64,000 nt of DNA from an uncultured virus (IMG/VR IMGVR_UViG_3300030376_002891) (IMGVR_UViG_3300030376_002891:1-64000); one strand, 5' to 3'. Shown: positions 12,657 through 51,572, numbered from the stretch's first letter. Translations and numbers: made by a program. Notes: generated by a model not told the origin, from the letters alone.

Positions 12657-15221
12657 ATGAAGTTTAATAAGAAGATTACAAACCTTCTGCAAGGTCAGTT
12701 ACCTGAATTTGCATTAGAACAGCATCCTAAATTTTTAGAGTTTGTCAAAACTTATTTCCAGTTAATGGAATCTGCTGAACTGCAAATTACTTCTTCACAA
12801 TCTACAGATGGTATCTTACTAGAAACAGAAACAGGTCAATCTAATAATTTAATATTAGACGCAAGTAGACTTGGTTCAGAAGCAACTCAAATAGACGCCG
12901 GTTCTAAAGTCTTACAAGAGACTTCTTCTTTTGGTAAGTTTACAACTGGTGAAACAATTAAAGGCGAAACATCAAACGCAACTGCTGTTATATTAGCAGA
13001 AGATTTAGTTAACAATAGATTATTCATTACAGCAGAAGATAAATTTATAGAAGGTGAAACGGTTACTGGTATTTCTTCTCAAGCGTCTGGTGTATCAGGA
13101 AACTATAGACCTAATCCTGTAAAAACAATACAAGACTTATTATCATTTAGAGATCCAGACAAAGTTATCTCACACTTCTTATCTCAATTTAGAAATGAAG
13201 TATTAAATACAATACCTGAAAATTTAACAGACAATCTAAACAAAAGAGAATTAATTAAAAGAGTTAAATCTTTGTATCGTACTAAAGGTACTGCAAAAGG
13301 ACACGAATTATTTTTTAGATTATTATTTGGTATCTCTTCTGAAACATTTTATCCTAAAGAACAAATGCTTAGAGTATCAGATGGTGAGTTTACTTCAAAC
13401 ACAATATTAAGATGTATTAATTCAATCGGTGATACTGGTAAATTAATTGGAAGAAAAGTTGAAGGTATTACTTCTGGTGCAACTGCGATTATAGAAAACA
13501 TATCTCGTTTTCAAATTTCAAGTGAAGTTGTATCTGAATTTTTATTAAACCAAGAAAGTATTGTAGGTACATTCCAAGTAGGTGAAACTATTAGAGGTAC
13601 TGAAACTGATACAGACGACTTGTATATTAAAACAACTATCACAGGTATACCTGGACAATTTACAATTACAAATGATGGTTCTCTATTTGAAGAATCCGAC
13701 ATTGTAGATTTAGTAGGTGGTGGTGCTGGTGCAAATTGTCAAGTTGCTGAAATAGGTGCTGGTCAAATTACAGATTTTTATATTAATGCTTCTGGTACAC
13801 AATATCAAATAGGCGACAAACTAGTTTTCAATAATGCAAATACAAATGGTGCCGGTGCAATAGCAGAAGTTGCTGTTGTTAATGGTGCAATTGCAGGAGA
13901 AACTGGAAGTGGTTACGACCATATTGTATTTGAAGACGCAACAAGTAAGAATGATATTAACCCAGGTAGTAAAATGGTTTTAGAATCTGGTCTAGGTGAT
14001 ATTACAGACATAAGATTAATTAAAGGTGGTTCTGGTTATACTAAAATACCTACGGTTACAATTACTTCTGATAATGGTTTATCTGCTGAGATTTACGCAT
14101 ACGGAAGAGATATTGGAAAACTTCTAGGTATCAATACGGTTGAACCTGGTTTCAAACACGATTTAAGTCCATCTCCACCAACGGTTAAATTACCACAATC
14201 AATTCTTATATTACAATCTTCAGGTAATTATGCTGTAGGAGAAACGGTTACAGGTGGAACTTCAGGTAGTACAGGTGTTGTATTATCTTGGGACGCAACA
14301 AGAGGTCTATTAAGATTAAAAGATGTTAGTGGTGCATTTATAGGACACGAAGTTATGACTGGTAGTCTTTCTTCGGTAACTGGTCTAATGGCAAAAACAG
14401 ATTTAGCAACTGCAACGGTTGATGTTGTAGGTACTTCAACAAGTGAAGGTAAATATATTTCAGAAGATGGTCACTTATCAGAAACAACTATGAAGATACA
14501 AGATAGTTTATACTATCAGGACTTTTCTTATGTTATTAAAGTAGGTCGTACTATTGATGAATGGCGAGACGCATTTAAAAAGACAATGCACCCTGCTGGT
14601 TTCTACTTTACTGCACAAGTAAATATTGAAAGTAGACTTAATGCAAAAAATAGAATGCCTGTTATTGGTAGGGTTACTGGTATTGAGGCAAGTCCATTTA
14701 TTTCTGTATTGAATACATTGTTTGGTACAATCTTTGGAAGAAGACTAGGTACTATAGATGATGGTACTACATTAAGAGGTACTGGTTCTAACGATAGACA
14801 ATTAGGTTTACCTGCTGATGTTGTACAATCTGCTCTTTCACCTTTTGCAACTAACACAAGAGACTTAACTCTACATAGAACAAAAATAAGTTTTACATTT
14901 CAATTTAAACCGTTTTATAACTTTAGAACGGTCAATACTAATTTTGGGTCAGTATATGCAGGACCAAGATTAAGAAGTTTCAATAAATACTTTCAACAAT
15001 CAATGTCTGCTTCTGCAATGAATTGGGCAAGAGTATCAGAATTAAAGGCAATAGGTACAAATACTAATGCTGATGGCACAGACTTGCAATATGGTGATTT
15101 AACTACTATTGCAAAGACATATATTACATATCCTGCTACGGTTCTAGTGCCTCAAGGTAGATTTAGTAATACACAGAAAAAATTTAGTAGTGGAACAGCG
15201 AGATTTGACTCAACTGCTTAA
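12657..15221 (+). CDS. gp7: Baseplate wedge initiator (gp7-like)
   Basis: Follows gp6; LYRTKGT..FFRLLFG and IQDSLYYQDFSYVIK..HPAGF motifs. Confidence 0.75.
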   Translation: MKFNKKITNLLQGQLPEFALEQHPKFLEFVKTYFQLMESAELQITSSQSTDGILLETETGQSNNLILDASRLGSEATQIDAGSKVLQETSSFGKFTTGETIKGETSNATAVILAEDLVNNRLFITAEDKFIEGETVTGISSQASGVSGNYRPNPVKTIQDLLSFRDPDKVISHFLSQFRNEVLNTIPENLTDNLNKRELIKRVKSLYRTKGTAKGHELFFRLLFGISSETFYPKEQMLRVSDGEFTSNTILRCINSIGDTGKLIGRKVEGITSGATAIIENISRFQISSEVVSEFLLNQESIVGTFQVGETIRGTETDTDDLYIKTTITGIPGQFTITNDGSLFEESDIVDLVGGGAGANCQVAEIGAGQITDFYINASGTQYQIGDKLVFNNANTNGAGAIAEVAVVNGAIAGETGSGYDHIVFEDATSKNDINPGSKMVLESGLGDITDIRLIKGGSGYTKIPTVTITSDNGLSAEIYAYGRDIGKLLGINTVEPGFKHDLSPSPPTVKLPQSILILQSSGNYAVGETVTGGTSGSTGVVLSWDATRGLLRLKDVSGAFIGHEVMTGSLSSVTGLMAKTDLATATVDVVGTSTSEGKYISEDGHLSETTMKIQDSLYYQDFSYVIKVGRTIDEWRDAFKKTMHPAGFYFTAQVNIESRLNAKNRMPVIGRVTGIEASPFISVLNTLFGTIFGRRLGTIDDGTTLRGTGSNDRQLGLPADVVQSALSPFATNTRDLTLHRTKISFTFQFKPFYNFRTVNTNFGSVYAGPRLRSFNKYFQQSMSASAMNWARVSELKAIGTNTNADGTDLQYGDLTTIAKTYITYPATVLVPQGRFSNTQKKFSSGTARFDSTA

Positions 15222-18405: not shown

Positions 18406-21400
18406 ATGCCAAGTCCAACTGACTTTAACCTCTCGCCGTACTTTGATGACTTCTCGGAAGATAAAAGCTTCCATAGAATTCTTTTTAGACCAGCATTTGC
18501 TGTACAGGCTAGAGAGTTAACTCAATCACAAACGATACTACAGAACCAATTTGAAAAAATGGGTAACCATATTTTTGAATCTGGTGCCCAAATGATTCCT
18601 GGTGAGATTACTTTTGACTTGGAATATTACGCAATCAAACTTACTTCTTTTGCTGGTACTACAGATTTATCACAATTTGTTGGACTAGAAATGACAGGAC
18701 AAACTTCTGGTGTAAAAGCAAAAGTTATCAATACAGATGTTGCAACTTCAACGGATCCTGCAACTCTATATGTTAAGTATACAAGAACTGGTACTAGTAC
18801 TCAAACACCAGACTTTGTAGCACCTGAAACGGTTTTAGGTGTACACCCAACACTAGGTAATTTAACTGGTGTTGTTCAGTCTGCTGAAACTGGTTCTGCG
18901 GCTGCGGTTGCAGCTGGTACTTATTACATTAATGGTTATGCTGTTAATGTTCCTGAACAAACAATTGTATTAGACAAATATACAAACACACCTTCTTATA
19001 GAGTAGGTTTAACAATTACAGAAAGTTTTATTACACCTAACCTAGATACTTCTCTAGTAGATAACGCTGCCGGTTCGTCAAACGCAAACGCACCTGGTGC
19101 TCACAGATTTAAAATTGCATTAACACTATCTAAACTATCAACTTCATCTATAGAAGACTCAAACTTTGTTGAGTTAATGAGATTACAAGATGGTAGATTA
19201 CAAAATAGAGTTAGAACTACAGAATATTCTATATTAGAAGATACACTTGCTAGAAGAACTGCTGACGAAAGTGGTGACTATACAATCAGACCTTTTGATT
19301 TAGATATTAGAGAACATTTAGATGATGGTAATAATAATAGAGGTATCTTTACTTCTGCAAATGGTGGTGACGCTACTAAACTTGCATTAGGATTATCTCC
19401 AGGTAAAGCATATGTTAAAGGATATGAAATTGATAAAGTAGGTACAACTTTTGTAGAAGTTGACAAACCAAGAAGTACAGGAACTGAAAATGGTTTCAAT
19501 ACTATCTTTGATGTTGGAAACTTTATGAATGTATCTAACGCATATAACGCTCCAGATGTTAACTTTGTAACCGGTAAGTCGGAAGCATTTAAATCATTAC
19601 AATTAAAACTTGCTAATTCAAGTTATGTTGCTGGTAATATCTCAACAAATGTAAACAACAAAGTATTAGACATAGGTAGAGCAAAATCTAAAGGTTATGA
19701 ATTTAACGCAACAACAGGTTCTGGTATAGGTAGTGCTTCAAACTTAGCACCATCTTCTCAAAATATATTTAAACATTATCTATTTGATATGGAAATGTTT
19801 AGTCATATTAAGATACCAACTAATCAAACATTTACAGATGGTGAATTAATAACTGGTAGTACTTCAGGTGCAACTGGTACAAAAGAAAGTGTATCAACAA
19901 ATACAACTTCTGCAATCACTTCATCTACAGCTGCAAATCCTGTTGTAATTACAATGACTGCTGATTTAGAAATAAATGATGGTGACGCAATTACGATAAC
20001 AGGTGTCGCAACTCAAACAGAATTAAATGACAATGTATATTATGTAAGACAACTTGTTGGTGGTGTTGCAAAAAGAGAATTTGAATTATATGACGCTGAC
20101 GGTGTTGGTGTTGATGGTTCTGCTCACGCAGGTGCTGGTGCTGGCGGAACTGCTTCTTGTTCAGTCGTAGTATTATCTGGTGTACAAGGAGAGTTTATTG
20201 TAGGAGAAACAATAACAGGTGGCACTTCATCAAATACTGCTGTTGTAAAAGCAAATGTATTTGGTAATCACGGTTTCACACATTACGGTTCAAGTGATGT
20301 AAAAGAATTAACAATGGCAGGAAGTCCAGTATATACTTCTCAAGCTGATTTAACTGCAACATATGGAGACAATACTCAATTATCTGGTAATATTTCTATT
20401 AGTGCTTCATCAGCAGATGTAACCGGTTTCAATACTCAATTCTTAACAGAATTAAAAATAGGAGATAGTGTTCAGTTTGCAACAACAGCTGGTACTATTT
20501 TAACTAGAACGGTTATCAACATTTTAACTTCATCTTCAATTAGACTTGATAGTGCAATCTCAACAACTGCTGTATCAAACTCATTGATTGTAAGAAGAAG
20601 AGCAAAATTACAAGACGCAAGTAAAAATATTTCATTATTCAGTTTACCATATGACACGGTTAAAACATTAAAGACAGAAGCAAACTCTGGTATTTCAGAT
20701 ACTTCATTTATCGTAAGAAAAACTTTTGTAGGTTCTTTATCTTCAACTGGTGATATTACGATTACTGCAAACACAGGTGAAACTTTTGTCGCTCAATCAG
20801 AATCAGATTATTCGGTAACAATTATGTCAGCAGGTGGTTCATCTTCTGCTGGTGCTGTCGGAGAAAAACTAACAACTACAGGTAATCAACACGAAGGCGA
20901 TACTTGTTTTACTTTAGGTGGTTCTCCAGTAGGTCGTTCACTAACTTTAGACTTTGGTGCTAATCATCAAGGACACGAAGTAAAAATTATTGCGACTATA
21001 TCTAAATCTGCACAAAACGAAAAATCAAAATCATTACAATCAAATGAAGCGGTTACAATTACAACACAAGGTGAAGCAACTGCAAATCATATCGCATTAG
21101 GTAAAGCAGATATTTACCAATTAGTATCTGTTAAGATGGCTGCTGACTTTAGTACAACACCAACTTCTTCTGATACTGATATTACAGATAGATTTACATT
21201 AGACAATGGTCAAAGAGATAACTTCTATGACATTGGTAGAATTGTAAGAAAACAAAATACTATTGCACCAACTGGACAATTATTAATTACATTTAACTAT
21301 TTCACACACGGTACTGGCGACTTCTTTAGTGTAGATAGTTATTCAGGTATTATTAATTACGAACAAATACCTAATTACACTTCTGATACTACAGGTCAAA

Positions 21401-24400
21401 CTTATGAGTTAAGAGATACACTAGATTTTAGACCACGAGTAGATGACGCAAGTACAATTAACTCTGGTGGCAACGATAGAAGTTTTGATGGCACAGGTGC
21501 TTCAACGGTTGATGTTGTTAAATTTAAAACAAATGTAACCACAGACCACGAATTTTATAAAGGAAGAGTAGACAAATTATTCTTAAACAAAGAAGGTACT
21601 TTTGAAGTACTTAAAGGTGCTGAAGATAGTATACCACAAGAACCTGGTTCTATTGATAACGCAATGCACCTTTACACTATTTCTTTACCACCATACACAT
21701 TATCTCCAGATAATGTATCGTATGAGACGGTAGAAAATAGAAGATACACAATGAGAGATATTGGTGCTATTGATAAGAAAATTGATAGAATAGAATATTA
21801 CACTCAATTGTCTCTATTAGAAAGTGCCGCTCAATCTTTACAAATACAAGACGCTGATGGTTTTGATAGATTTAAAAATGGTTTCGTAGTAGATAACTTT
21901 AACGGTCACGGTATCGGTGAAGTAACCAATGGTTCATACAGATGTTCTATTGACTATGCAAGAGGTGAGTTAAGACCTTTATTCAACCAAGACGCTGTAA
22001 AACTAGAAGAGATTGACGAAGATGGTACAACACTTGTTGATACTGATAGAGCAGCTGCAAACTATCAGAAGACTGGTGATTTATTAACATTACCATATAC
22101 AGAAAAAGATTTAATTAATCAACCTTTTGCTTCAAAAGCAATTAATGTTAACCCATTTGCAATTTTCAGTTGGATGGGTACAATTGACTTAACACCTTCA
22201 AGTGATGAATGGAGAGAAACACAAAGAACTCCTGATTTAGTTGTAAATTCTGATACAGGTGCTTGGGATCAATTACAAAGACAAACAGGTATTACAGACC
22301 AAGATGAGATTTCACTTGGTACGGTTTGGAACGAATGGCAAACTAACTGGACTGGTGCTCCGTTAACTTCAACGGTTACAGGTACTGGTGGAACATTTAG
22401 AAGTGGTCGTGCAATTGTAAGAAGAACTGAAATTACAAGTATTAACCAAGTTAACCAAAGTAGAACAGGTATTACAACTACTGCTGTTCCACAAACGGTT
22501 AGAACTTCTATGGGTGATAGAGTTGTATCAGTTGCTTTCGTACCATTTATCAGAAGCCGTGATGTTGAATTTGTTGCAACAAGATTAAAACCAAATACAA
22601 GAGTATTTCCATTCTTTGACAATGTAAGTATTGCTCAATACATTACACCAACAGGTGGTGCATTAGGTGGTAACTTAATTACAGATGACAATGGTTCTGT
22701 ATCAGGAACATTTACTATACCGGATCCAAAAATAGAAACTAATCCTAGATGGAGAACTGGAGAAAGAACATTTAGATTAACTTCTTCTTCAACAAACTCT
22801 TCGGACGCAGCTGCTGTTGCTACTGCGGCTAATGCTGAATATATCGCAAGAGGATTATTAAATACCGTTAGAGATACAATTGTTTCTACAAGAGAGTTTA
22901 GAGGTGTACAACAAACGGTTACAGATTCACAAACAATCTTACAAACAAGTACAAGACAAGGTACTCAAATTATAGGTTGGACAGACCCACTATCTCAAAC
23001 ATTTATGACAGATGAACAAGGTGGTGTTTTCTTATCTTCTGTAGATTTATATTTCTCAACAAAAGATTCTTCTATACCAATAACTATACAAGTTAGAAAT
23101 ACGGTCAATGGTTATCCTGGAAGTAAAATATTACCATTTGGTGAGGTTACAATAAATCCATCTGCTGTAAATACAAGTACTGATGGTTCAGTAAAAACAA
23201 CATTTACATTCCCATCGCCTGTTTACATACAAGATAAAGTTGAATACGCATTAACGGTGTTATCTAACTCAAACGAATATAATATGTATGTAGGTAGATT
23301 AGGAGAAACTAATTTAGGTTCTAATAGAACAATATCTAAACAACCATACGCTGGTGTATTATTTAAATCTCAAAACGGTTCTACTTGGACTGCTGAACAA
23401 AACGAAGATATGAAATTCGTTATGAAAAGATGTGAGTTTAATAATGTAGTAGGTACGGTTCATTTAGGTAGTAAAGAATTACCAGCACAAACATTAAAAC
23501 AAAATGGTTTAAGAACAACAAATGGTTCTGGTGTAATTAGAGTATTCTTTAAAAATCATAACTTACACGATACAAATTCTGTGGTTACAATTGCTGGTGT
23601 TCCTAATGGTACACACAATGGTATCGCACATACAGATATTAATGGAACATACACAACTATTTCTAATATAACTTTAGATAGTTTTGATATTACTGCTCAA
23701 AATTCTGCTACTGCAAATACTGATGGCGACATTGGTGGCACAGCAGTAACCTGCACAGGTAATAAACAATTTGATGTATTAAACTTAGCAGGTATTCAAA
23801 CTATGACGGTACCTGGTACAAGTTTAGCACCATTTATTAGAACAACAACTAGTAAATCAATTCACGGTACACAAACACCGTATCTATTAACTAGTGAAAG
23901 TAATAGACAATCGGTTACATTGGCAGATGACATTTACTTTACTGCACCTCAAGCAGTTATGTCAGGACCTAATGAAACAACTAGAATGTCAGGACAAAAA
24001 TCTTTCTATACTATTATAAGAATGGCAACAATTAATACTAAATTGTCTCCTGTAATTGATTTAGATAGAAGTAGTGTATTCTGTGTTTCAAACAGATTGA
24101 ATGACCCAACAAGTGGTAATACACCAAACTATGTTGCTGAAACTTCTGCAAATGGTTCATCAACTGCGTCTCAATATATTACTAAACCGATTACACTTGT
24201 AAACAACTCAACTGCTTTAGATATTAGATTGACACAAGTAGTTAGAGATACTTCTAAAGTTGAAGTTTATTTTAGAACTTCATCAGCAGACGAAGTAAGA
24301 GGTATCGGAGATATTGATTGGACACCTTTCAATGCAAATGGTGTTGAAGATGAATCTGTTGCAAAATCTAAAAATGATGATGACTTTAGAGAATACAAAT

Positions 24401-24519
24401 ATTCAAAAGATAACTTAAACGCATTTACAGCGTTTCAAATTAAGATTGTACTAAAAGGAACTAACTCTAGTTATCCACCAATCTTACGAGATATGAGAGG
24501 TATCGCATTAGCGATTTAA
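18406..24519 (+). CDS. Large virion structural protein (VrlC/DUF4815-like)
   Basis: SPYFDDF..ILFRP..VQARELTQSQTILQNQ, APGAHRFKI, RRYTMRDIG, DPLSQTF motifs. Confidence 0.85.
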   Translation: MPSPTDFNLSPYFDDFSEDKSFHRILFRPAFAVQARELTQSQTILQNQFEKMGNHIFESGAQMIPGEITFDLEYYAIKLTSFAGTTDLSQFVGLEMTGQTSGVKAKVINTDVATSTDPATLYVKYTRTGTSTQTPDFVAPETVLGVHPTLGNLTGVVQSAETGSAAAVAAGTYYINGYAVNVPEQTIVLDKYTNTPSYRVGLTITESFITPNLDTSLVDNAAGSSNANAPGAHRFKIALTLSKLSTSSIEDSNFVELMRLQDGRLQNRVRTTEYSILEDTLARRTADESGDYTIRPFDLDIREHLDDGNNNRGIFTSANGGDATKLALGLSPGKAYVKGYEIDKVGTTFVEVDKPRSTGTENGFNTIFDVGNFMNVSNAYNAPDVNFVTGKSEAFKSLQLKLANSSYVAGNISTNVNNKVLDIGRAKSKGYEFNATTGSGIGSASNLAPSSQNIFKHYLFDMEMFSHIKIPTNQTFTDGELITGSTSGATGTKESVSTNTTSAITSSTAANPVVITMTADLEINDGDAITITGVATQTELNDNVYYVRQLVGGVAKREFELYDADGVGVDGSAHAGAGAGGTASCSVVVLSGVQGEFIVGETITGGTSSNTAVVKANVFGNHGFTHYGSSDVKELTMAGSPVYTSQADLTATYGDNTQLSGNISISASSADVTGFNTQFLTELKIGDSVQFATTAGTILTRTVINILTSSSIRLDSAISTTAVSNSLIVRRRAKLQDASKNISLFSLPYDTVKTLKTEANSGISDTSFIVRKTFVGSLSSTGDITITANTGETFVAQSESDYSVTIMSAGGSSSAGAVGEKLTTTGNQHEGDTCFTLGGSPVGRSLTLDFGANHQGHEVKIIATISKSAQNEKSKSLQSNEAVTITTQGEATANHIALGKADIYQLVSVKMAADFSTTPTSSDTDITDRFTLDNGQRDNFYDIGRIVRKQNTIAPTGQLLITFNYFTHGTGDFFSVDSYSGIINYEQIPNYTSDTTGQTYELRDTLDFRPRVDDASTINSGGNDRSFDGTGASTVDVVKFKTNVTTDHEFYKGRVDKLFLNKEGTFEVLKGAEDSIPQEPGSIDNAMHLYTISLPPYTLSPDNVSYETVENRRYTMRDIGAIDKKIDRIEYYTQLSLLESAAQSLQIQDADGFDRFKNGFVVDNFNGHGIGEVTNGSYRCSIDYARGELRPLFNQDAVKLEEIDEDGTTLVDTDRAAANYQKTGDLLTLPYTEKDLINQPFASKAINVNPFAIFSWMGTIDLTPSSDEWRETQRTPDLVVNSDTGAWDQLQRQTGITDQDEISLGTVWNEWQTNWTGAPLTSTVTGTGGTFRSGRAIVRRTEITSINQVNQSRTGITTTAVPQTVRTSMGDRVVSVAFVPFIRSRDVEFVATRLKPNTRVFPFFDNVSIAQYITPTGGALGGNLITDDNGSVSGTFTIPDPKIETNPRWRTGERTFRLTSSSTNSSDAAAVATAANAEYIARGLLNTVRDTIVSTREFRGVQQTVTDSQTILQTSTRQGTQIIGWTDPLSQTFMTDEQGGVFLSSVDLYFSTKDSSIPITIQVRNTVNGYPGSKILPFGEVTINPSAVNTSTDGSVKTTFTFPSPVYIQDKVEYALTVLSNSNEYNMYVGRLGETNLGSNRTISKQPYAGVLFKSQNGSTWTAEQNEDMKFVMKRCEFNNVVGTVHLGSKELPAQTLKQNGLRTTNGSGVIRVFFKNHNLHDTNSVVTIAGVPNGTHNGIAHTDINGTYTTISNITLDSFDITAQNSATANTDGDIGGTAVTCTGNKQFDVLNLAGIQTMTVPGTSLAPFIRTTTSKSIHGTQTPYLLTSESNRQSVTLADDIYFTAPQAVMSGPNETTRMSGQKSFYTIIRMATINTKLSPVIDLDRSSVFCVSNRLNDPTSGNTPNYVAETSANGSSTASQYITKPITLVNNSTALDIRLTQVVRDTSKVEVYFRTSSADEVRGIGDIDWTPFNANGVEDESVAKSKNDDDFREYKYSKDNLNAFTAFQIKIVLKGTNSSYPPILRDMRGIALAI

Positions 24520-24522: not shown

Positions 24523-24756
24523 ATGTCAAGTAGATATTTAAAAGTTGAAAGTGAAGTAAATTTAGTTAGAGATACACAATCAGGTGGTATTATTAATACT
24601 AATTCAAGTGAATTTGATTTGTATATGCAAAGAAGAAAATTAAGAGTATCAAGTGCTGACAAAATGAAAGATGTTTGTAGAGAGATAAATACTTTAAAGG
24701 CAGAAATGTTTGAGATAAAAGAATTATTAAAAAATATGTGTAAAGGTAAAGAATAA
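24523..24756 (+). CDS. Conserved small hypothetical protein
   Basis: LVRDTQSGGIINTN..EINTLKAEMFEIKELL; typical downstream neighbour of VrlC-like genes. Confidence 0.75.
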   Translation: MSSRYLKVESEVNLVRDTQSGGIINTNSSEFDLYMQRRKLRVSSADKMKDVCREINTLKAEMFEIKELLKNMCKGKE

Positions 24757-26057
24757 TGGCTGTAAGACAGGTAACAGAAACAGATAGTTTAGATAAATTA
24801 AGAATAGAGTTTAATGCTCTTGCGGCTAATGACTTTGGAGATATTGCAACTCTATCACCAACTTTATCTGCGACTTCTGTAATCGGTGCTGTTAACGAGA
24901 TTAATAGTATTGCGATTGCCGCTGCCGGTTTCATATTATCAGATGGTGTTAATACACAGGCGGTTGCTTCTGGTAACACTATGTTGGTTACTTCTGGTTT
25001 AGGTGTTAATGCAACGGTATCATCACCAGATACTTTAAATATTGCATTAAATAATAACTTATCAGGTTTAAATACAATTGATGTAGGTACTTCTGCTGAA
25101 ATATCAAACATTACAATTTCAACATCATCAATTATTTCTGCGAGTGGAACAATTGATTTTGGTAACGAACAATTAAATACAACAGGTGGTATAAGTGCTG
25201 GTGGTTCATTAGTTGGTTCTAGTTTAACACTTAACGGTGCTTCAATGAAATTTGAAGGTGCAACTGCAAACGCATTTGAAACTACTTTAAGAGTAGATGA
25301 TCCATCACAAGACAATATTATTACACTACCAGACATAAGTGGTACCGTTATTACTTCAGGTGATACAGGTACGGTAACTTCTACAATTTTAGCAAACAAT
25401 GCTGTAGGTACATCACAAATTGCTGACTCTTCGGTAACGATTGCAAAACTATCAGGATTTGCAAGTGCAACATTAACGGTTGACACTTTAGTTGCAAATA
25501 CTATTACAGGTACTGCTTCATTAGCAACACAAGTAGACATTACTGGTGAGTCCACTACTAACGCAACAAGATATTTAACTTTTGCTGATAATTCATCTGG
25601 TGCAAATACATTAAAAGCAGATACAAGTTTATACTATAACCCATCTACAAATATTTTAACAACGACTGCTACACAAGCAAGATATGCTGACTTGGCAGAA
25701 AAATACAAAGCAGATAAAGAATACGAAGTCGGTACGGTATTATGTATCGGTGGAACTGCTGAGGTAACTATATGTACACAAAATCATTGTTCAAAAGTAG
25801 TTGGTGTTGTATCAGAAAAACCTGCCTTTATTATGAACGGCAGTTTAGAAGGTGTAACCGCTACGGTTGCAATGACAGGAAGAGTACCAGTTAAAGTTTG
25901 TGGTCCTGTAAGAAAAGGCGATATGTTAGTATCTTGTGATAAAGCAGGATGTGCTAGAGCAGAAGCAGAACCAAGACCAGGAACATTAATTGGAAAATCA
26001 TTAGTCAATGACGATAATTCAGGAGAGAGAATTATAGAAGCAGTTGTTGGTAAATAG
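24756..26057 (+). CDS. Tail fibre-like protein with C-terminal intramolecular-chaperone (peptidase G2-like) domain
   Basis: S/T/G-rich shaft, FEGATANAFETTL; YADLAEKY..VVGVVS..GRVPVKV.G.V.KGDMLV. Confidence 0.7.
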   Translation: MAVRQVTETDSLDKLRIEFNALAANDFGDIATLSPTLSATSVIGAVNEINSIAIAAAGFILSDGVNTQAVASGNTMLVTSGLGVNATVSSPDTLNIALNNNLSGLNTIDVGTSAEISNITISTSSIISASGTIDFGNEQLNTTGGISAGGSLVGSSLTLNGASMKFEGATANAFETTLRVDDPSQDNIITLPDISGTVITSGDTGTVTSTILANNAVGTSQIADSSVTIAKLSGFASATLTVDTLVANTITGTASLATQVDITGESTTNATRYLTFADNSSGANTLKADTSLYYNPSTNILTTTATQARYADLAEKYKADKEYEVGTVLCIGGTAEVTICTQNHCSKVVGVVSEKPAFIMNGSLEGVTATVAMTGRVPVKVCGPVRKGDMLVSCDKAGCARAEAEPRPGTLIGKSLVNDDNSGERIIEAVVGK

Positions 26058-26066: not shown

Positions 26067-26546
26067 ATGGACGAACAAACCCAATTGTGGATTTCCAGAT
26101 TAAAAGAGGAAATTCAATCACACGACAGATACGAAGCAAGACAATTATTCTACATAGATGACGAAGGACTTGACCGTGAGGTTAAAGAACATATGACTTA
26201 TGGAGAATGGTTAAGAGAATTTGAAAGATTCAAAACTATCAAGGTGGAAGGCTTAGAAGATGTGGCCTGGTTAAGAGAAGTTTTAGATGAAGTTGTATTG
26301 AATATCACAGGTAAGAAAAGACAAGATATTCATTTATTTGTAAATCAGAAACCAGGTGTTAGTTTTAGAGAACACAAAGATGATAAAGATGTTTACTTAT
26401 ATGTTGTAAAAGGCAAGAAGAAAGTATCATTGAACGGTGAAGTTAAACCAGTATATGATGACGAAGGTATATTGATAGAACAAGGCGTTAAACACTTTGT
26501 AGATAATGAAGCAGATACTTGGGGGTTAAGTATCGGAGTTGTATAA
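26067..26546 (+). CDS. JmjC/cupin-like Fe oxygenase
   Basis: IHLFVNQKPGVSFREHKDDKDVYLYVVKGKK..GVKHFV (HxD...H triad). Confidence 0.75.
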   Translation: MDEQTQLWISRLKEEIQSHDRYEARQLFYIDDEGLDREVKEHMTYGEWLREFERFKTIKVEGLEDVAWLREVLDEVVLNITGKKRQDIHLFVNQKPGVSFREHKDDKDVYLYVVKGKKKVSLNGEVKPVYDDEGILIEQGVKHFVDNEADTWGLSIGVV

Positions 26547-27577
26547 TGAATTGGATGTTTTATCTTAAAACAACCGAGACCTGCAATCTAAATTGTAAAC
26601 ATTGTTTTACTTCAGGTATCAATGGTCCTAAAGTCTACTGGAATCCAGATAAGATTATCAAGTGGCTTAAAAATTTCAGAAAATATAATTTTCAAAAACA
26701 CGATACAGCACATTTAGAACTACACGGTGGCGAACCGTTTTTAGTTCCTGTGTCTGAAATGCAATATGTCTATGACGCCACAAAGAATTTGTGGGAACAA
26801 CAATCAATGGGCATAACTTCCAATCTAGTTTTCAAACTTAAACAAGAACATATTGACTTTATCAAAGGTCCATTAGGTAATAGATGTGGAACAAGTTGGG
26901 ATCCTAATATAAGATTTGCAAATGAGAAACAAGCAAACTTATGGCGTAAGAATGTAGAGACATTAATCGCCGAAGGTGTCAATATTAAACTTTTTATTTC
27001 AGTAACCAAAGACACAATTAGAATTGAACCTATTGAATTACTAAAATGGGTAAGAGATTTGGGTGTAAAAGAAATGGCACTAGAAAGATTGACTGGAAAT
27101 GGTAATGCAAACTTACATCCAGAGATATTTCCTAGTAATATAGAACAAGACAAGTGGTTTTTGAAAATGCACGAACAATCTATTGAGTATAATACAAGAG
27201 ATTGGTTTGAAAATGAGTTTTTTGAGACAATTTATTCAAAATTTGAGTATGGTTCAACAAAAGATGGCACATTTTGCCGAGATTGTGAACAAAAACTATT
27301 TACACTTAACGCAACAGGCACAATAGGCGGTTGTCCTAACGCAGCTCCCGAGTTTAATTTTGGAACTTTAGATGACCCTCTAGTAGAACTTATAAATAGT
27401 CCTAAGAGATTAGAAAATGTTGCTTGTGAAGTGGCAAGGAACCCTAAATGCTTTGATTGTGAAGTATTTAAATATTGTGGAGGCGACTGCCATCAATTAG
27501 AATGGCAAGGTAATGTATGTGGTGCTCCTAAATCTCTTATGAAGCACTTAAAGAAACAAAGTGAGGCGAAATGGTAA
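26546..27577 (+). CDS. Radical SAM/SPASM protein 1
   Basis: CNLNCKHC; HGGEP; C-terminal C..GCP..CFDCEVFKYCGGDC..C. Confidence 0.93.
   Translation: MNWMFYLKTTETCNLNCKHCFTSGINGPKVYWNPDKIIKWLKNFRKYNFQKHDTAHLELHGGEPFLVPVSEMQYVYDATKNLWEQQSMGITSNLVFKLKQEHIDFIKGPLGNRCGTSWDPNIRFANEKQANLWRKNVETLIAEGVNIKLFISVTKDTIRIEPIELLKWVRDLGVKEMALERLTGNGNANLHPEIFPSNIEQDKWFLKMHEQSIEYNTRDWFENEFFETIYSKFEYGSTKDGTFCRDCEQKLFTLNATGTIGGCPNAAPEFNFGTLDDPLVELINSPKRLENVACEVARNPKCFDCEVFKYCGGDCHQLEWQGNVCGAPKSLMKHLKKQSEAKW
27391..27398 (+). promoter_or_regulatory. T4-type late promoter inside rSAM1, upstream of the CHxS-repeat protein
   Basis: TATAAATA about 170 nt before ATG 27571. Confidence 0.5.
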
Positions 27578-28344
27578 CTTTAAATAACCCGATAACGAGT
27601 CAAAACATAGTAGATAGATTTGAGGAACTGGTAACTGATATAGCAGACCACCATATTGTATGGGGTACTGATAATTTACCTGGTCACTCGGCATTTTCTG
27701 CTTCTGATTTTGGTGGAGTTGTTGATGGATTTAATCTTAACTTGATAAATGTATCAGGTTCTTATACTCAAAACGAAACCGTAACCGGTTCTATTACAGG
27801 TACAATAGGTACCGTAGTTAGTTGGTCTAACAATGTATTAAAAGTTAGAAACATAGTACCAGGTTCTGGTCAAACAGGATTTTTACAAAACGATATTATA
27901 TCTGGAACTAATTCTGGTGCTGTAGGTTCTGTAAATACTTTTAACGAAGTAAATGCTGTATCTATCGGTATCACAGGTTCATCTATTGGTAATGCAGGTT
28001 CATTAATTACTGCAAACCAAATTTATACTACACTTAAAAATGAAATGAACACCTATACTAATATTAAAAACACAAACGCTGTAGTTAATATGACAGGCGC
28101 AGGACAACAATATTCAGATACACAAATTGCACACTTACCAACATCAAATAGAACAACTTTAAATCCAAGTCAACCTAGTAATTTACAAGCAGGTCAAACT
28201 ATTGATGATAACAACTTGGAGAATTTCTTTTCAACACTTGCAAACTCTTATAATACTGAAAGAGGAAACACTTACACAATGACAAAAACTATTTGCCACA
28301 GCAGTTGCCACGGTAGTTGCCACGGAAGTAGAGGAAGAAGATAA
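27571..28344 (+). CDS. Virion-type protein with C-terminal (CHxS)3-RGRR tail; candidate radical-SAM substrate
   Basis: Baseplate-type repeat GSYTQNETVTGSITGTIGTVVSW; ends TICHSSCHGSCHGSRGRR. Confidence 0.8.
   Translation: MVTLNNPITSQNIVDRFEELVTDIADHHIVWGTDNLPGHSAFSASDFGGVVDGFNLNLINVSGSYTQNETVTGSITGTIGTVVSWSNNVLKVRNIVPGSGQTGFLQNDIISGTNSGAVGSVNTFNEVNAVSIGITGSSIGNAGSLITANQIYTTLKNEMNTYTNIKNTNAVVNMTGAGQQYSDTQIAHLPTSNRTTLNPSQPSNLQAGQTIDDNNLENFFSTLANSYNTERGNTYTMTKTICHSSCHGSCHGSRGRR
28294..28329 (+). repeat. 3 x 12-bp tandem repeat encoding CHxS
   Basis: TGCCACAGCAGT TGCCACGGTAGT TGCCACGGAAGT. Confidence 0.9.
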
Positions 28345-29036
28345 TGATTGAATCTATAGTACCAATTGAATTAAAAGACTTAAAAAAATACTTTGAAGAC
28401 AAAACAGAAACTTATCTATTAGACTATGAAAACAGCACATTGAAAGGTGCTCAGTTTTTAACATATTTAAGTAATTTAGATATACCTTGTGATATTAAGA
28501 ATATGGACGAAGAACTAATAAGTGAGTATCTTAAATCTCAAATGTTAGTTAGTATACCTAAATTAGAGAAAGAAATAATTGCTGTATTATTTGAACACAA
28601 AGGGTTGACAAAGACAGATAAATATAAGAGTGTTATAGAAGAGAACAAAGAGATACTTGACAAATGGGCAGGTAAATTAGAAAGTCTACCATTATATAAT
28701 ATGTCAATTGTCGGTGAAGGTGCTTTCAATGATTTTGTTGAGAGTTATCCTAAAGACGAAACAGAAGATGTAAGAGGTATCAACTTTGTTTCATTATTGA
28801 AACACAAAGAATTTTATAGTTATTATCAAATGCCAAAAGAAAACATTGTTAAGAATTATACAAAGTACTTTAAAGAATATATGTTTAAAGGTAAATCTTT
28901 ATTTGAATATTGGGCAAACGCAAGTAACCCATTATTCTTAATGACTTGGGCAGTTGCTGAAGGCAAATTTGATAGTAAAGAATATAACAAAAGGAAAATG
29001 GAAGGTGTACAAAATCTTCCACTAGAGAGTAAATAA
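28344..29036 (+). CDS. Hypothetical protein of the rSAM cluster
   Basis: 230 aa, coupled (TAATG) to the CHxS gene. Confidence 0.75.
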   Translation: MIESIVPIELKDLKKYFEDKTETYLLDYENSTLKGAQFLTYLSNLDIPCDIKNMDEELISEYLKSQMLVSIPKLEKEIIAVLFEHKGLTKTDKYKSVIEENKEILDKWAGKLESLPLYNMSIVGEGAFNDFVESYPKDETEDVRGINFVSLLKHKEFYSYYQMPKENIVKNYTKYFKEYMFKGKSLFEYWANASNPLFLMTWAVAEGKFDSKEYNKRKMEGVQNLPLESK

Positions 29037-30161: not shown

Positions 30162-31214
30162 ATGCGAGAGTTTTTAATAGACCCAAAAAGAGACCCAGAG
30201 CAAGAGTACACAATTCACTTATTTGAATTTTGTAATCTGCGTTGTGCTTTCTGTTGGCAAAACCACGAAGATACAATCGGTATTGATAATGTGGTTGATA
30301 AACTTCCATCTATAGAAAAATTTGTTTCAAAAGAAATGTATATGAAAGTCACCTTTAATATTATGGGTGGCGAAGTCTTTGCACCTGCAATCTATAATAG
30401 AAATCTAAACGAAGGTTATAAACTTCTATCAAAAGGCATACAAAAGATATGTCAAAGGTACGATAAAGAATTTTCAATCAATTGGGTATCTAACTTGGTT
30501 ACATCACCTGATGGTAATGAACTCATTATGGACTTACTTAAATGGTCCAGAGAAGAAGATATACCTTGTAGACTTACAACAAGTTATGACCCACGAGGTA
30601 GATTTAATAAAAAAGACTTTGAGATATTTAAATCTAATGTAGAATATTGGGGTGATGAAGTTACCTGTTTCTCTTGTCTACTTACAAAACCTAATATAAA
30701 CTTTTATTTAAATGAAGGCGATGAATACTTTGATTATTTGTATAATCAAGGTAAGTACATATATTTTGATTATTATATGCCAGATGAACACGCAAAATAT
30801 AATATGCCTAGTGATGAACTATTATTAAAGTTTTTTAAACATTGTGTTGACAAATATCCAAATGTTCATCCTGTAAGAGACTGGATATTTAATAAAAAGA
30901 ATTATGCAAGTTGTAGAGTATCTAAACTTGTTTTAGCAGATGGTACATTATGTCAATGTGGTAACCTTGTACAAGATGAGAAATCATTAAGTCAATATAA
31001 GTCGCCCATTAAAAGAAAAGACAATAGTATTATAGAAAACTCTTTCCTAGAGAAATATAATTGTAGTAGTTGTGAATTTTTAGATAGATGTACACTTGGC
31101 TGTTTTATGAACCACGATTATAGATATAAGGAGGAGTTGGATGAATGTGTTTACAAACTTACGCACAGATATATTGAAGATGTACGACTACAGCGAAACT
31201 ATATCGCAAACTAA
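30162..31214 (+). CDS. Radical SAM/SPASM-like protein 2
   Basis: CNLRCAFC; MGGEV; C..CQC..CSSCEFLDRCTLGC..C. Confidence 0.92.
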   Translation: MREFLIDPKRDPEQEYTIHLFEFCNLRCAFCWQNHEDTIGIDNVVDKLPSIEKFVSKEMYMKVTFNIMGGEVFAPAIYNRNLNEGYKLLSKGIQKICQRYDKEFSINWVSNLVTSPDGNELIMDLLKWSREEDIPCRLTTSYDPRGRFNKKDFEIFKSNVEYWGDEVTCFSCLLTKPNINFYLNEGDEYFDYLYNQGKYIYFDYYMPDEHAKYNMPSDELLLKFFKHCVDKYPNVHPVRDWIFNKKNYASCRVSKLVLADGTLCQCGNLVQDEKSLSQYKSPIKRKDNSIIENSFLEKYNCSSCEFLDRCTLGCFMNHDYRYKEELDECVYKLTHRYIEDVRLQRNYIAN

Positions 31215-31770
31215 TTATTTCAATTTTCCTAAACATATAGAAGTACAACTAGATAACTTTCCTGTAGAGAAACCATATCTACCTAGAATAGATGGTAGAC
31301 AAGCACATATGTTTTTATGGTTAGGCAAGAAAGAAGAAGATGGTGAACTATATGAGATTGCAAAGAAAACTAAAGGCGAAAGACAATGGGTTCAAAACAA
31401 GACGCCAGGCACATTTATTAAGGGCGTAGGAATGTTTCATATCTATGACGAGTATGTTATAGTCGGTTCTTTGAAATATGCCGGTTATATGAAGAATAGA
31501 CCTGCAAAAGAAAATAGACATTTAATAAGAACTATGTGGTGTGAGACTATAAACATATTTAAAGATAAAGATATATTGTGTCCTTCAGGTACTTACTTTG
31601 ATTGGTTACATTTAACAATGAATCAAATGAGAGCACAAAAAGAACCATATCATAGAGAAATAATGTGGCAGTTTGGATTTGATAAAATTGTTGAAGGTAA
31701 ATTAAAAGATTATTGGATTAGAAGAAAAGAAAATAAAACTGGACTTGACTGGATAGGAAGATGGACTTAA
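31180..31770 (+). CDS. Hypothetical protein of the rSAM cluster
   Basis: In-operon ORF overlapping both neighbours; alternative start at 31141. Confidence 0.7.
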   Translation: MYDYSETISQTNYFNFPKHIEVQLDNFPVEKPYLPRIDGRQAHMFLWLGKKEEDGELYEIAKKTKGERQWVQNKTPGTFIKGVGMFHIYDEYVIVGSLKYAGYMKNRPAKENRHLIRTMWCETINIFKDKDILCPSGTYFDWLHLTMNQMRAQKEPYHREIMWQFGFDKIVEGKLKDYWIRRKENKTGLDWIGRWT

Positions 31771-32855
31771 TTATAAAACCTACTGAACTTTGTAATTTTA
31801 AGTGTACCTTTTGTTCAAGTACACAACTTACAAATGAGAAAAAGAACTGGTTGAAACACGACCAGATATTTCGTTTTTTAGAAAGATTTCCAGAAACTAA
31901 AACTATAATAGTAAATGGTGGTGACCCATTGATGATGGCACCTGATTACTACTGGAAGATTATTGAATGGTTAGATAATAAAGGTTATGATACTTCACTT
32001 GCATTAACAACTAACTTGTGGCCTTTCTATAAGAAACCTAAACTATGGGTTGACTTATTTAATAATGATAGAGTAGGTATTACAACTTCTTTTCAATATG
32101 GTGGTGGTAGATTAAAAGGAGACTATTCAGAATTTACAGAAGAAGACTTTTGGAAGTGTTCAGATACTATGTTAGAGTATTGTGGTTATAGACCAGATTT
32201 TATATCTGTTATCACAAGAGAAAATGAACACAACGCAATTAAGAATGTTGAACTTGCAAAAAGAATGTCAGAAGATAAAATGCCAGAAGGTACTTTACAT
32301 AACTTTTGGCGAGAAGAAAAGACAGGCGTAGAATGTAAGTTAAATTATGCAATGGCAAGTGGTGAACAAAAAGAGCCTTTTTTGTTATCAGATATATATG
32401 AGAAGTATGTAGAAATCTATAGGGCAGGTTTAGCACCTTGGGAGTTTAATACTAGACAGATGATGTTAGCAATCAACGATAGTGCTACAAGTTGTCCGTT
32501 AAGTAGAAAATGTGATGAAGGTATTAGATGTTTACAACCAGATGGCGATTACTATAGTTGTGGTGCTTTTGGTGATGATAAAGATAAGTCTATAGATTTT
32601 GAAGAAGAAATGAAAGGTAAGTTTTTTACACCTTTACAAGATAGTTTAGAGTTAACTACAATGAAAAAGAATTGTTATAGTTGCCCTATGTTTAATATAT
32701 GTAATGGTTGTAGAAAGACAATTAAAGATTATAAAGAAGCAGGAGTTGTAGAAAAACATTGTGAGAAAATGAAAAGAATAGGACACGATATTTTAATCGC
32801 AAATAATAAACCTCACATATCAATGACACCTTATGAGAGAGAATATGCAAGTTAA
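31761..32855 (+). CDS. Radical SAM/SPASM protein 3
   Basis: CNFKCTFC; NGGDP; CP...C..YSC..CYSCPMFNICNGC..C. Confidence 0.93.
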   Translation: MDLIIKPTELCNFKCTFCSSTQLTNEKKNWLKHDQIFRFLERFPETKTIIVNGGDPLMMAPDYYWKIIEWLDNKGYDTSLALTTNLWPFYKKPKLWVDLFNNDRVGITTSFQYGGGRLKGDYSEFTEEDFWKCSDTMLEYCGYRPDFISVITRENEHNAIKNVELAKRMSEDKMPEGTLHNFWREEKTGVECKLNYAMASGEQKEPFLLSDIYEKYVEIYRAGLAPWEFNTRQMMLAINDSATSCPLSRKCDEGIRCLQPDGDYYSCGAFGDDKDKSIDFEEEMKGKFFTPLQDSLELTTMKKNCYSCPMFNICNGCRKTIKDYKEAGVVEKHCEKMKRIGHDILIANNKPHISMTPYEREYAS

Positions 32856-33297
32856 ACATAATGTATTAACAAACTTGGAACTTAATCATATGATAAGTGA
32901 ACTAGGTAATCTAGGCAAAGATTATCCTATCTATGAAAAGAATGTACATAAGAAATTACCAGATGATTGGAAATGGGCAGATAGTATCTGTAAATTAAAT
33001 GTACCTAATGTAAAACATTGTATCGTTAGGTATGTTATCGCTGTAAATAGTAAAGATGAAGAAAAGAATATTATAGGGTTTCATACAGACAGCGATGTAA
33101 AAGGAGAAAAAACTATTATATTATATTTACAAGGTGATAGTAATAAAGGTGGTCAAATACAAGTTGAAGATAAGACTTATGACTTTAGACAAAACGCAAT
33201 GTTTATTATGGACTCTCATTTAGTACATAGGGCAATGCCTTATTGGGGAGAAAAAACAAGACTTGCAATTAAATGGAGATGGACTTGTGAGGGGTGA
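32845..33297 (+). CDS. 2OG-Fe(II) oxygenase
   Basis: FHTDSD..ILYL..GGQI..HRAMP..RLAI. Confidence 0.82.
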   Translation: MQVKHNVLTNLELNHMISELGNLGKDYPIYEKNVHKKLPDDWKWADSICKLNVPNVKHCIVRYVIAVNSKDEEKNIIGFHTDSDVKGEKTIILYLQGDSNKGGQIQVEDKTYDFRQNAMFIMDSHLVHRAMPYWGEKTRLAIKWRWTCEG

Positions 33298-33808
33298 ACA
33301 CGATTTATCAAACTTAATAATAAATGGAGTATGGCCACATAAAGACCTTGCACCTTTTAAATTCTTTGAAGGTGTACAGATACCTTTTGTAGAAACGAAA
33401 GGAGAGTATACGGTTGCTGTTCATACTGAAAAGGTTGCACACGCACTTACCACAACCCACAAATATTTGGGTGATAAATATATTAGTAAGTTGTCTAGTA
33501 GATATACATTACACGGACGACCTGAAATTGTCAATGGTGTAGATAAAGAAAGTACACTTTGGCACAATGACTTGAAAGAAGGAGCAAACATTGCTATATT
33601 AATGTACTTTACAAATGCTTGTAATAAAAAACAAGGTGGTTCTTTATCAGTTAGAAATAAAGAAACAAAAGAATTATCTTGTTGGTTATATCCAGGTAAG
33701 AACGATTTAATATTTTTAAATCATAGTAAAGTATGGGAACATAGAGTTGGTAAATTCAAACTAATTGATAGTGAAAGAATTGTAGGATGTTTTAATTATA
33801 ATATATGA
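33287..33808 (+). CDS. 2OG-Fe(II) oxygenase
   Basis: WHNDL..LMYF..GGSL..WEHRV..ERIV; GTG start after GGAG. Confidence 0.8.
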   Translation: MRGEHDLSNLIINGVWPHKDLAPFKFFEGVQIPFVETKGEYTVAVHTEKVAHALTTTHKYLGDKYISKLSSRYTLHGRPEIVNGVDKESTLWHNDLKEGANIAILMYFTNACNKKQGGSLSVRNKETKELSCWLYPGKNDLIFLNHSKVWEHRVGKFKLIDSERIVGCFNYNI

Positions 33809-34380
33809 AAAATAAGATATTTCCAAACGGCAGAATACACGCCTCAAAAGAACAAGATTTAGATTACTCAAATGGATACCTTGCGTTATCAGTAAGTCCA
33901 TTTGACAATAACTTTGACAATGAAGTTGAGAAAGGTGTATTACCTCATTGCCACGCACTTATTAGAAAAGGTTATCTTCCAATATCAAGTTGCGAAGGAC
34001 ACTTTACTAAAAAACACCATATGCCATTTTATGTAATGTTAGCAGTTGGTGGTAAAAACAAATTAGATAGAATATACGATATAATAAACAAGACAAAACA
34101 TATACCTGGTATATCATATAAAATTAAAGAACAACAAGCAAATGTAAGAGGTGAACTATTAGAAAGAGTAAACTATAGTTTAGATAAAGCAGAAGAGTAT
34201 GCTGAACTAAACAGATTGTTTATGAGAAATCATTTAGAGTATAATTATCTCTGGATAGGTTTATTTCAAAGTGATAAGAAATTATCAGAAAGAATTTTAA
34301 GAAGACTTATGTTTAGTAGATGTAAGAAAATGTTATTGAATAGTATTGAGGTGTTGAACTATGACGAAGCCGAAGATTAA
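33805..34380 (+). CDS. Hypothetical protein with KGY.PISSCEGH motif
   Basis: In-operon; E.GV..L..KGY..SSCEGH loosely resembles the Tyw3-like N-terminal motif. Confidence 0.65.
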   Translation: MKNKIFPNGRIHASKEQDLDYSNGYLALSVSPFDNNFDNEVEKGVLPHCHALIRKGYLPISSCEGHFTKKHHMPFYVMLAVGGKNKLDRIYDIINKTKHIPGISYKIKEQQANVRGELLERVNYSLDKAEEYAELNRLFMRNHLEYNYLWIGLFQSDKKLSERILRRLMFSRCKKMLLNSIEVLNYDEAED

Positions 34381-35308
34381 TCTGTCAATCAATCCATCTT
34401 ATTTTTGTAATTTTAGATGTCCTTGGTGTTATCTAAAACCTGAACAATTGGGTGACCAAAAATGTATTGACCATTTTAAATTAAGTGAACTATTAAATGA
34501 AGTACAAACTCATAGAGATATAGAACACATTGATTTATATGGTGGTGAGATAGGCGTATTAAAAGAAGGTGCATTAGAAAAAATCACAAATGCAATTAAG
34601 ATATACTATAAAGAAAAGATTAATATAAACACTAACTTATCTATGATGAGAGAAGAGTTTATGAATCCTGATTATTTTATTAGTGTTAGTTATGATATGG
34701 AGAGTAGAGAAGAACACGAAAAAGTATGGAACAATATGATGAAACTGCCTGTTCCTTTTTCTGTTTTGATACTTGCAAATGAAAAAGTATTAAAAACATC
34801 AACTCAACATATATGGTCTAAAATGATACACTTGACTAAAGACAATCAAAACTTTCAAGGATTTGAAATTAAACCTTATAGTACTAATCAGGCAAACCAA
34901 CATCCTATCACTCACGCACATTTTGAAGACTTTATATTAAGAATGGTAGAGACTAAACCTAACCAATGTCCTGTACATTTTATTAATGAAGACAATATTA
35001 AAGACTCTCTTAATAGTAGTTATAACGCATACAGCGATGACCATTTATATATTACACCTAATGGTAAGTTTGCTGTATTAGATTTTGATAAAGACGATAA
35101 TGAATATTTTTTAGAACTTGATAGTTTTGCTGATTACGAAGTATGGTGTCAGAAAGAAAAAGAACAAAACATTTCCGATATATGTCGTAAGTGTGAATAT
35201 CTAGGTAGATGTCTAACTGAACATTACAGATATGTTAAAAGTCTAAAAGATGGTTGCAATGGGTATAGGTATCTGTTGGATACTTATTCGTTTAAATATG
35301 GCAAATAG
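34361..35308 (+). CDS. Radical SAM protein 4 (reduced SPASM/twitch)
   Basis: CNFRCPWC; YGGE; CRKCEYLGRCLTEH..GC. Confidence 0.92.
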   Translation: MTKPKINLSINPSYFCNFRCPWCYLKPEQLGDQKCIDHFKLSELLNEVQTHRDIEHIDLYGGEIGVLKEGALEKITNAIKIYYKEKININTNLSMMREEFMNPDYFISVSYDMESREEHEKVWNNMMKLPVPFSVLILANEKVLKTSTQHIWSKMIHLTKDNQNFQGFEIKPYSTNQANQHPITHAHFEDFILRMVETKPNQCPVHFINEDNIKDSLNSSYNAYSDDHLYITPNGKFAVLDFDKDDNEYFLELDSFADYEVWCQKEKEQNISDICRKCEYLGRCLTEHYRYVKSLKDGCNGYRYLLDTYSFKYGK

Positions 35309-47424: not shown

Positions 47425-47432
47425 TATAAATA
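47425..47432 (+). promoter_or_regulatory. T4-type late promoter
   Basis: TATAAATA. Confidence 0.75.
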
Positions 47433-47460
47433 TAAAGAACAATTAAGATAGGAAATAAAA

Positions 47461-51564: not shown

Positions 51565-51572
51565 TATAAATA
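51565..51572 (+). promoter_or_regulatory. T4-type late promoter
   Basis: TATAAATA. Confidence 0.75.

Follow-up and report, generated by a model that had tools for sequence, protein, structure and literature searches.

In the DNA of an uncultured marine phage we find a 257-residue protein that ends in a short, nearly invariant Cys/His tail, encoded within a conserved cassette of radical-SAM and other enzymes. We consider it quite likely that the tail is the target of these enzymes, and probable that the protein is a true virion component; that both statements hold together is, in our view, moderately likely. Maturation of phage particles is usually ascribed to proteolysis, autocatalytic cross-linking and simple metal binding; here a 10-kb cassette of oxygen-sensitive iron-sulfur enzymes would be retained to finish 16 residues of one protein. 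The window (the whole 64,000-nt stretch analysed, which is part of a 72,856-base record that is ~48% complete) covers the part of a T4-like phage genome that encodes baseplate, fibre and neck, and the gene lies within it. Table 1 gives the positions of the features discussed below.

Table 1. The candidate substrate gene, its tail and the surrounding cassette, in window positions.
Feature	Position	Strand	Remarks
Fibre-like protein directly before cassette	24756..26057	+	relative in 66/83 loci
Cupin/JmjC-like protein	26067..26546	+	invariant H-x-D...H; weak MINA histidyl hydroxylase profile match, E 0.007
Radical SAM/SPASM enzyme 1	26546..27577	+	phrog_1802; SPASM model 32 bits vs cut-off 27
Predicted T4-type late promoter TATAAATA	27391..27398	+	inside enzyme 1 gene, 180 nt before substrate start
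GAGG ribosome-binding site of substrate gene	27563..27566	+	from sequence
Candidate substrate, 257 aa	27571..28344	+	alpha/beta family core + inserted beta-barrel + C-terminal (C-H-x-S)3-R-x-R-R tail
Six-stranded beta-barrel insert, residues 52-128	27724..27954	+	clade-specific; also in gp7-like protein
Cys/His tail, residues 242-257	28294..28341	+	pLDDT 65, 55 (low); adjoins core's last beta-strand
Conserved cassette protein, 230 aa	28344..29036	+	phrog_20767; start overlaps substrate stop
Conserved cassette protein, 371 aa	29038..30153	+	
Radical SAM enzyme 2	30162..31214	+	phrog_1802
Variable cassette protein, 209 aa	31141..31770	+	in 37/83 loci
Radical SAM enzyme 3	31761..32855	+	phrog_1802; best conserved of the enzymes
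Two 2OG-Fe(II) oxygenase-like genes	32833-33297, 33263-33808	+	
Radical SAM enzyme 4	34361..35308	+	phrog_1802
Conserved cassette protein, 136 aa	36049..36459	+	phrog_20737

As an earlier note on this DNA had it, the open reading frame translates on the + strand to 257 residues; its C-terminal end reads ...TICHSSCHGSCHGSRGRR, and its codon usage is like that of the neighbouring cassette genes. A word-based search gave 92 homologues out of 530 candidates, and a profile search put the family at no fewer than 812 clusters at 50% identity, of which 150 representatives were listed. Homologues are typically 175-220 aa long (175-300 aa for the folded family proteins) and fold as a body plus tail, which agrees with the earlier view that this is unlike a small RiPP precursor. 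Outside the tail the protein is divergent, with a mean column identity of 20% across 134 family members. NCBIfam, Pfam and PADLOC hold no name for the family, which corresponds to two unnamed PHROGs only, and an NCBIfam scan of the 134 members returned nothing but weak, scattered matches. The cultured carriers described below were not found by tblastn with a 190-aa family member and were found instead via the enzymes.

The three Cys of the protein, at 242, 246 and 250, all lie within its last 16 residues, and three 12-bp units are present at 28294-28329, so the earlier description of a Cys-bearing tail encoded by a 3x12-bp tandem repeat is accurate. Its expectation of conservation is also borne out: three C-H pairs occur near the end of 145 of the 150 listed representatives (two pairs in the other 5), and the exact end CH-x-x-CH-x-x-CH-x-x-R-x-R-R is found in 217 of 227 homologues that passed a filter on length and one CH-x-x-CH, 19 of 246 sequences having been dropped. 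Among the filtered homologues the fourth place of each unit is Ser (or Asn/Ala), and three Cys plus three His at period 4 are able to bind metal. Repeat-number variation among homologues, which the earlier note had proposed as a check, proved rare (e.g. P0092, L098), the count being nearly fixed at three. Across 61 distinct loci, synonymous codons differ at every tail position, which argues that selection acts on the peptide and rules out DNA slippage as the source of the repeat; judged by these codons, the 12-bp DNA repeat is a by-product of the protein repeat. In the L098 case (L098:3-362), from a gut Firmicutes contig, the C-H repeat tail is greatly expanded, and the genes that normally make up the cassette come after it. 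In P0126, P0166 and P0184 one tail Cys or the entire third unit is replaced, and these sequences are natural tests of residue importance.

The tail travels with a fixed set of genes. The recurring order is cupin, enzyme 1, substrate, 230-aa protein, 371-aa protein, enzyme 2, enzyme 3, enzyme 4 and 136-aa protein, with the 2OG oxygenases as variable members. In a set of 83 loci (79 from IMG/VR, 3 cultured phages and the window; duplicates were kept and many loci are cut by contig ends), the substrate is present in 82, enzyme 1 in 80, the 230-aa protein in 77, the cupin in 75, enzyme 2 in 74, the 371-aa protein in 71, enzyme 3 in 69 and enzyme 4 in 65. A search that started from enzyme 3, on loci that are partly the same contigs, found the tail in 61 of 80 loci and in 58 of the 64 that reach enzyme 1; the six without it in the stretch examined are rearranged and cut. 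All four radical-SAM enzymes have the CxxxCxxC motif and C-terminal Cys clusters, and enzyme 1 alone passes the SPASM cut-off of 27, enzymes 2 and 3 scoring 21 and 22.7. Among named families the enzymes come closest to the RiPP maturases DynA and PapB, with scores that fall far short of the cut-offs, which makes any assignment of the chemistry a guess. No clear solved-fold or sequence match was obtained for the 230-, 371- and 136-aa proteins, and no peptidase or exporter/transporter was found among the conserved members, three of which carry no functional assignment. Some cassettes add a radical-SAM gene of 550-650 aa (L088, L092, L086, L191, L192), which in L088 and L092 looks B12-dependent and suggests extra methylation; that of Pseudomonas phage DT01 (L082:11025-19811) has six annotated radical-SAM genes.

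The carriers are T4-like phages, phiKZ-like phages and Bdellovibrionota chromosomes. Enzyme 1 occurs in 15 cultured-phage records (Atu_ph07, Phosso, RSL2/RSF1 relatives and DT01), and in all three of the phages opened (Atu_ph07, RSL2 and DT01) the gene after enzyme 1 carries the tail. Two carrier-phage papers (PMC11898562, PMC8066314) list only the radical-SAM enzymes, and PMC7824862 holds no "radical SAM" passage. On the bacterial side, five Bdellovibrio-type MAG loci carry the cassette, and enzyme 3 was matched in 18 of 401 Bdellovibrionota genomes. The tailed protein is present at 8 of 13 further Bdellovibrionota enzyme-3 loci; the other five genomes include three with the tail pattern and two with no pattern match. 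On these chromosomes cassette and substrate occur together without phage genes, and the fibre genes are not included; the bacterial copies show that the substrate need not be part of a virion. Two tandem tailed paralogues share one locus in L095 (6062-6879), L123 and L126. Prepilin-like genes lie beside some Bdellovibrionota cassettes (L092:17708-18751; L094:4406-8148), possibly by chance; a link to type IV pilins was not counted as evidence, a loose pattern having appeared at 6 of 18 loci and an HMM (TIGR02532) having confirmed 1 of 4 candidates.

In T4 the sequence TATAAATA serves as the late promoter, and cyanophages have a version that is nearly the same (PMC2984593). The earlier note had taken the copy inside the enzyme 1 gene to be the substrate gene's own late promoter, and comparison among loci supports this. 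Judged by number alone, copies of the motif show no enrichment in the window (14 vs 11.1 expected); all 14 copies are on the + strand, 11 of them outside ATG-initiated ORFs of 70 aa or more. Its placement is specific: 54 of 61 distinct loci have it within the final 300 nt of the enzyme 1 gene, whereas it lies within the body of that gene in 0 of 58, at the other core cassette genes in 0-2 of 48-65 loci each, and at the last cassette gene, ahead of the next late gene, in 14 of 45. Codons for x-I-N-y spell TATAAATA in 45 of 51 cases at the usual site vs 22 of 427 elsewhere, and in loci that lack it at that site the motif turns up at other offsets. The promoter loci are related to each other, so these counts are not independent; the codon control and the positional shifts argue for selection despite this kinship, and the copy at 27391 is, as a prediction from sequence, the conserved late promoter of the substrate gene. 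Seven of the 61 loci are without the motif, including the cultured phages Atu_ph07, RSL2 and DT01. Scans for sigma-70 promoters gave chance-level results.

The claim that this promoter would express the substrate in excess of its enzymes fares worse. Of the cassette genes, only the cupin and enzyme 1 lie upstream of it; the following 230-aa gene overlaps the substrate stop in 41 of 61 loci, and no conserved terminator was found after the substrate gene in 59 loci. Given the overlap and this negative result, transcription from the promoter would be expected to continue into three of the four radical-SAM genes. A hairpin at 28434-28451 was rejected as a terminator, since -5 kcal/mol is reached in 8 of 59 loci, fewer than after other genes. 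Four metatranscriptome runs, available as contigs only, gave short pieces scattered across the whole cassette and neither a start site nor a gene ranking. Elsewhere in the window, a second TATAAATA at 59939-59946, within the tail sheath stabiliser gene (59478-60290) and 364 nt before a phrog_274 gene, may be a further late promoter of the internal kind. The stretch 44191-54226 holds three long late genes whose products have RCC1-like repeats, each gene lying behind its own TATAAATA or close to one. After a late promoter at 54227, four genes at 54280-57599 lie between the fibre and neck genes, one matching a ferredoxin-oxidoreductase-like PHROG and two without a family.

In the structure model, residues 52-128 form a six-stranded barrel that is absent from most homologues. 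Foldseek finds this barrel in many cyanophage structural, neck, wedge and fibre proteins, and it aligns with residues 769-846 of the KP1 baseplate chain 9f4a_AY (Z 7.2, rmsd 2.3, 69 aligned), EF-Tu-type barrels aligning nearly as well (Z 5-6). The earlier note had seen parallels to this segment in three proteins of the window. A profile of residues 52-128, judged against a best score of 8.1 in 20 shuffles, clearly matches the gp7-like protein (12657-15221; 24.3 bits) and marginally gp8 (10.5), and the parallel with the VrlC-like protein (5.9-6.2) falls within chance. Two half-barrel matches in the latter protein (18406-24519), at its residues 474-500 and 588-614 and each within chance, are perhaps one barrel split by an insertion. 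No baseplate PHROG matched the substrate, whose gp7/gp8-type likeness is confined to residues 52-128.

The distribution of the barrel argues against a central role. Of 237 family proteins compared, 32 have it, all of them closely related, and among the 150 listed representatives it occurs in 1. In a 68-sequence FastTree tree the nine sampled carriers form one clade (support 0.999) nested among barrel-less relatives; the deep nodes are poorly supported, so we leave the direction of transfer unclaimed. Other lineages of the family have unrelated inserts at several core loops. The barrel is an optional, recent accessory gain of 77 residues in one marine clade, and the protein is not, as had been proposed, a baseplate-type domain fused to a core peptide: the actual carrier of the tail is a separate core domain of ~180-190 aa. 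With the barrel removed, this core models confidently as one domain (pLDDT 90). Against 48,161 solved chains its best Z was 3.9, and neither solved structures nor sequence comparison gave a clear match, while Foldseek matched the core model to viral models that include Atu_ph07 gp170 (E 1.2e-6). Three BFVD models of Myoviridae sp. ctijX18 (A0A8S5USJ7, A0A8S5USJ8 and A0A8S5USV2; 504-660 aa) match the core fold with E 6e-5 to 5e-3, and on these models proteins larger than the substrate family may also carry the domain. A homotrimer prediction for the substrate scored 0.01, a value that counts neither for nor against a trimer.

Particle association was found for one homologue, in the proteome of a single phage, Atu_ph07, whose table comes without a peptide list. 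The syntenic, barrel-less homologue gp170 appears in Table S5 of that particle proteome at 31.89 kDa, with 8 peptides and 35% coverage (Attai et al. 2018, PMC6102473), and the mass that we compute for tailed gp170 equals the table's. Also present is gp176, the counterpart of the upstream fibre-like protein; gp165-169, 171 and 172 are absent from the table (PMC6102473). The earlier suggestion of a virion-attached protein thus finds support in PEG-purified particle preparations in which gp170 is detected and the enzymes are not listed. The protein was found in gel bands 1-9 with its peak in the top band, band 1 (PMC6102473). Among 33 proteins of 25-37 kDa with two or more peptides in the same table (four single-peptide rows were left out), 2 peak in band 1 vs 18 in bands 7-8; gp321 is also a protein that peaks in band 1. 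That gp170 runs far above its own size probably means that its tail is chemically finished. The printed loading buffer names no reductant (PMC6102473), so disulfides among the tail or other Cys could also explain band 1. Moreover, the preparation was PEG-purified only and the list includes RecA-like, SSB and terminase proteins (PMC6102473), so an abundant aggregate could co-pellet.

We propose that the substrate would be made late from the conserved promoter, have its tail covalently matured by the cassette and then join the virion. The radical-SAM enzymes would abstract hydrogens in the tail and form covalent cross-links, most likely as Cys thioethers, His-Ser bonds or both inside each unit, and possibly also from one subunit to another. 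Hydroxylation of His or Arg may fall to the cupin and the 2OG enzymes, and recognition may involve R-x-R-R and the unassigned proteins of the cassette. The product would be a rigid element, resistant to proteases and oxidation and probably able to bind metal. It would stabilise or arm a structure on the surface that acts against Gram-negative cells, a role that would explain its presence in predatory Bdellovibrionota. In the window's clade, a surface loop would have received a virion-type barrel as an accessory. We entertain only tentatively a stronger version, in which the four radical-SAM enzymes join tails from adjacent subunits into a metal-loaded polymer held together by covalent cross-links. 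As a whisker, fibre coat or tip, this polymer would help to find or breach Gram-negative cells, and Bdellovibrio-like predators would have taken up the kit. If true, virions would have a class of component made through dedicated radical chemistry, and the phrog_1802 enzymes would gain a substrate.

Several other explanations have to be weighed against a matured tail on a virion protein. Unlikely, in our estimate, is a matured protein whose site of action is the envelope or periplasm of the host and not a surface structure, and which arrives inside the virion or is made late; it could serve counter-defence or superinfection control, HxsA-like through H-x-S repeats and basic residues that bind DNA. 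The tail does have three H-x-S motifs with Cys before each and basic residues after, HxsA works in the periplasm with radical-SAM-modified H-x-S repeats (PMC13128918), and phages and Bdellovibrionota both cross the Gram-negative envelope; however, a structural role better explains why the homologue migrates at the top of the gel, why the gene has baseplate and fibre genes around it and why a virion-type barrel was taken up, and no HXS family model matched. A classical RiPP, with the folded body as a large leader and the modified 16-mer released as a free peptide, metallophore or cofactor, strikes us as rather improbable. It would account for the extreme conservation restricted to the tail, and is in keeping with closest enzyme models that are RiPP maturases, though weak, and with an Atlas neighbour cluster in which 25% of members have the CXXX-repeat target family. 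Yet the conserved cassette has no peptidase or transporter, the last strand of a confident fold runs directly into the tail with no conserved cleavage motif, and the body of gp170 is itself in particle preparations.

We also think it distinctly improbable that the tail is left unmodified to bind Zn, Cu, Fe or an Fe-S cluster or to form disulfides, with the enzymes acting elsewhere, on the upstream fibre, a nucleotide or a cofactor, and the substrate serving as scaffold or metal donor. Its Cys and His could bind metal, a non-reducing gel could yield band 1 through disulfides, and the fibre-like gene precedes the cassette in most loci (Table 1); against this, bacterial chromosomes keep the substrate with the enzymes but not the fibre, and neither the invariant fourth-position Ser/Asn nor R-x-R-R is needed for plain metal binding. 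The strict version of the earlier note, in which the baseplate-type barrel acts as carrier and attaches the tail to the baseplate, we find very hard to credit: the matches to the gp7-like repeat and the KP1 chain speak for it, but the barrel is confined to one clade inside barrel-less relatives, gp170 is in particles without one, and the same barrel occurs in neck, fibre and other structural proteins, with similar Z from EF-Tu-type barrels.

On the preferred reading, of a tail matured by the cassette on a virion protein, this is radical-SAM protein maturation in a virion context, which we regard as real and conserved. It is undescribed in the literature searched, which held no account of the cassette's substrate; subscription papers and bioRxiv supplements were outside its reach, and a prior description or a contrary proteome may exist. 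That the cassette is kept across T4-like phages, phiKZ-like phages and predatory bacteria implies a strong benefit and probably new Cys/His chemistry. The cassette also offers a reason for the many radical-SAM genes of marine T4-like phages, which are noted without a substrate in PMC5332604. The reading is directly testable: a cultured phage carries the cassette, the substrate is named and the reading predicts a shift in mass for one tryptic peptide.

Among known systems, the tail is most readily compared with HXS (HxsA/B/C/D; TIGR03976-03979), an antiphage system in which a whole protein, HxsA, is matured by radical-SAM enzymes (Li et al. 2026, PMC13128918); a +8 Da modification and periplasmic export also mark that system. 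Shared are H-x-S repeats with basic residues in a whole protein (here three H-x-S units, then R-x-R-R) and, as a prediction in our case, maturation by several radical-SAM enzymes together with a small accessory protein. Unlike in HXS, each H-x-S here has a Cys before it, and the repeats sit at the C terminus in a fixed number of three. The cassette has four enzymes as well as oxygenases, the protein lacks a peptidoglycan-binding domain, and it is phages and predatory bacteria that carry the system. The HXS models agree: neither the effector HxsA (TIGR03979) nor HxsD (TIGR03976) had a match at E<=10 in the phage's own incomplete record, the substrate had no NCBIfam match, and enzyme 1 scored 32 bits against HxsB (cut-off 370) and enzyme 3 30.9 against HxsC (cut-off 267.9). 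The CXXX-repeat system (TIGR04114/TIGR04115, PF27846) shares Cys at period 4, as do the SCIFF ranthipeptides; the His after each Cys and the terminal R-x-R-R are specific to the substrate family. TIGR04114 gave no match and TIGR04115 12.5 bits against 350, and the nearest named Atlas cluster (score 0.80, 67% viral) has PF27846 in 25% of members. Traits of released-peptide RiPPs were not found, there being no small precursor and, among conserved cassette members, no peptidase or exporter. With the T4-like baseplate, neck and fibre barrels (gp7-like; cyanophage gp14 and gp53; KP1), residues 52-128 share fold and sequence motif, but here as a single optional insert in an unrelated core. In the Crp system of Methanococcus voltae, CrpC places ranthionine cross-links on the 28.8-kDa CrpA (PMC13692751); a SPASM radical-SAM enzyme, Cys cross-links on a ~29-kDa protein and suspected metal binding are shared, as predictions in our case. 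Crp has one enzyme with an RRE, Cys-rich repeats along the protein and an archaeal host, whereas here there are three tail Cys, four enzymes and a virion context. By analogy with these systems, our best reading is that the tail would be covalently matured like HxsA or CrpA, but on a protein that belongs to neither family.
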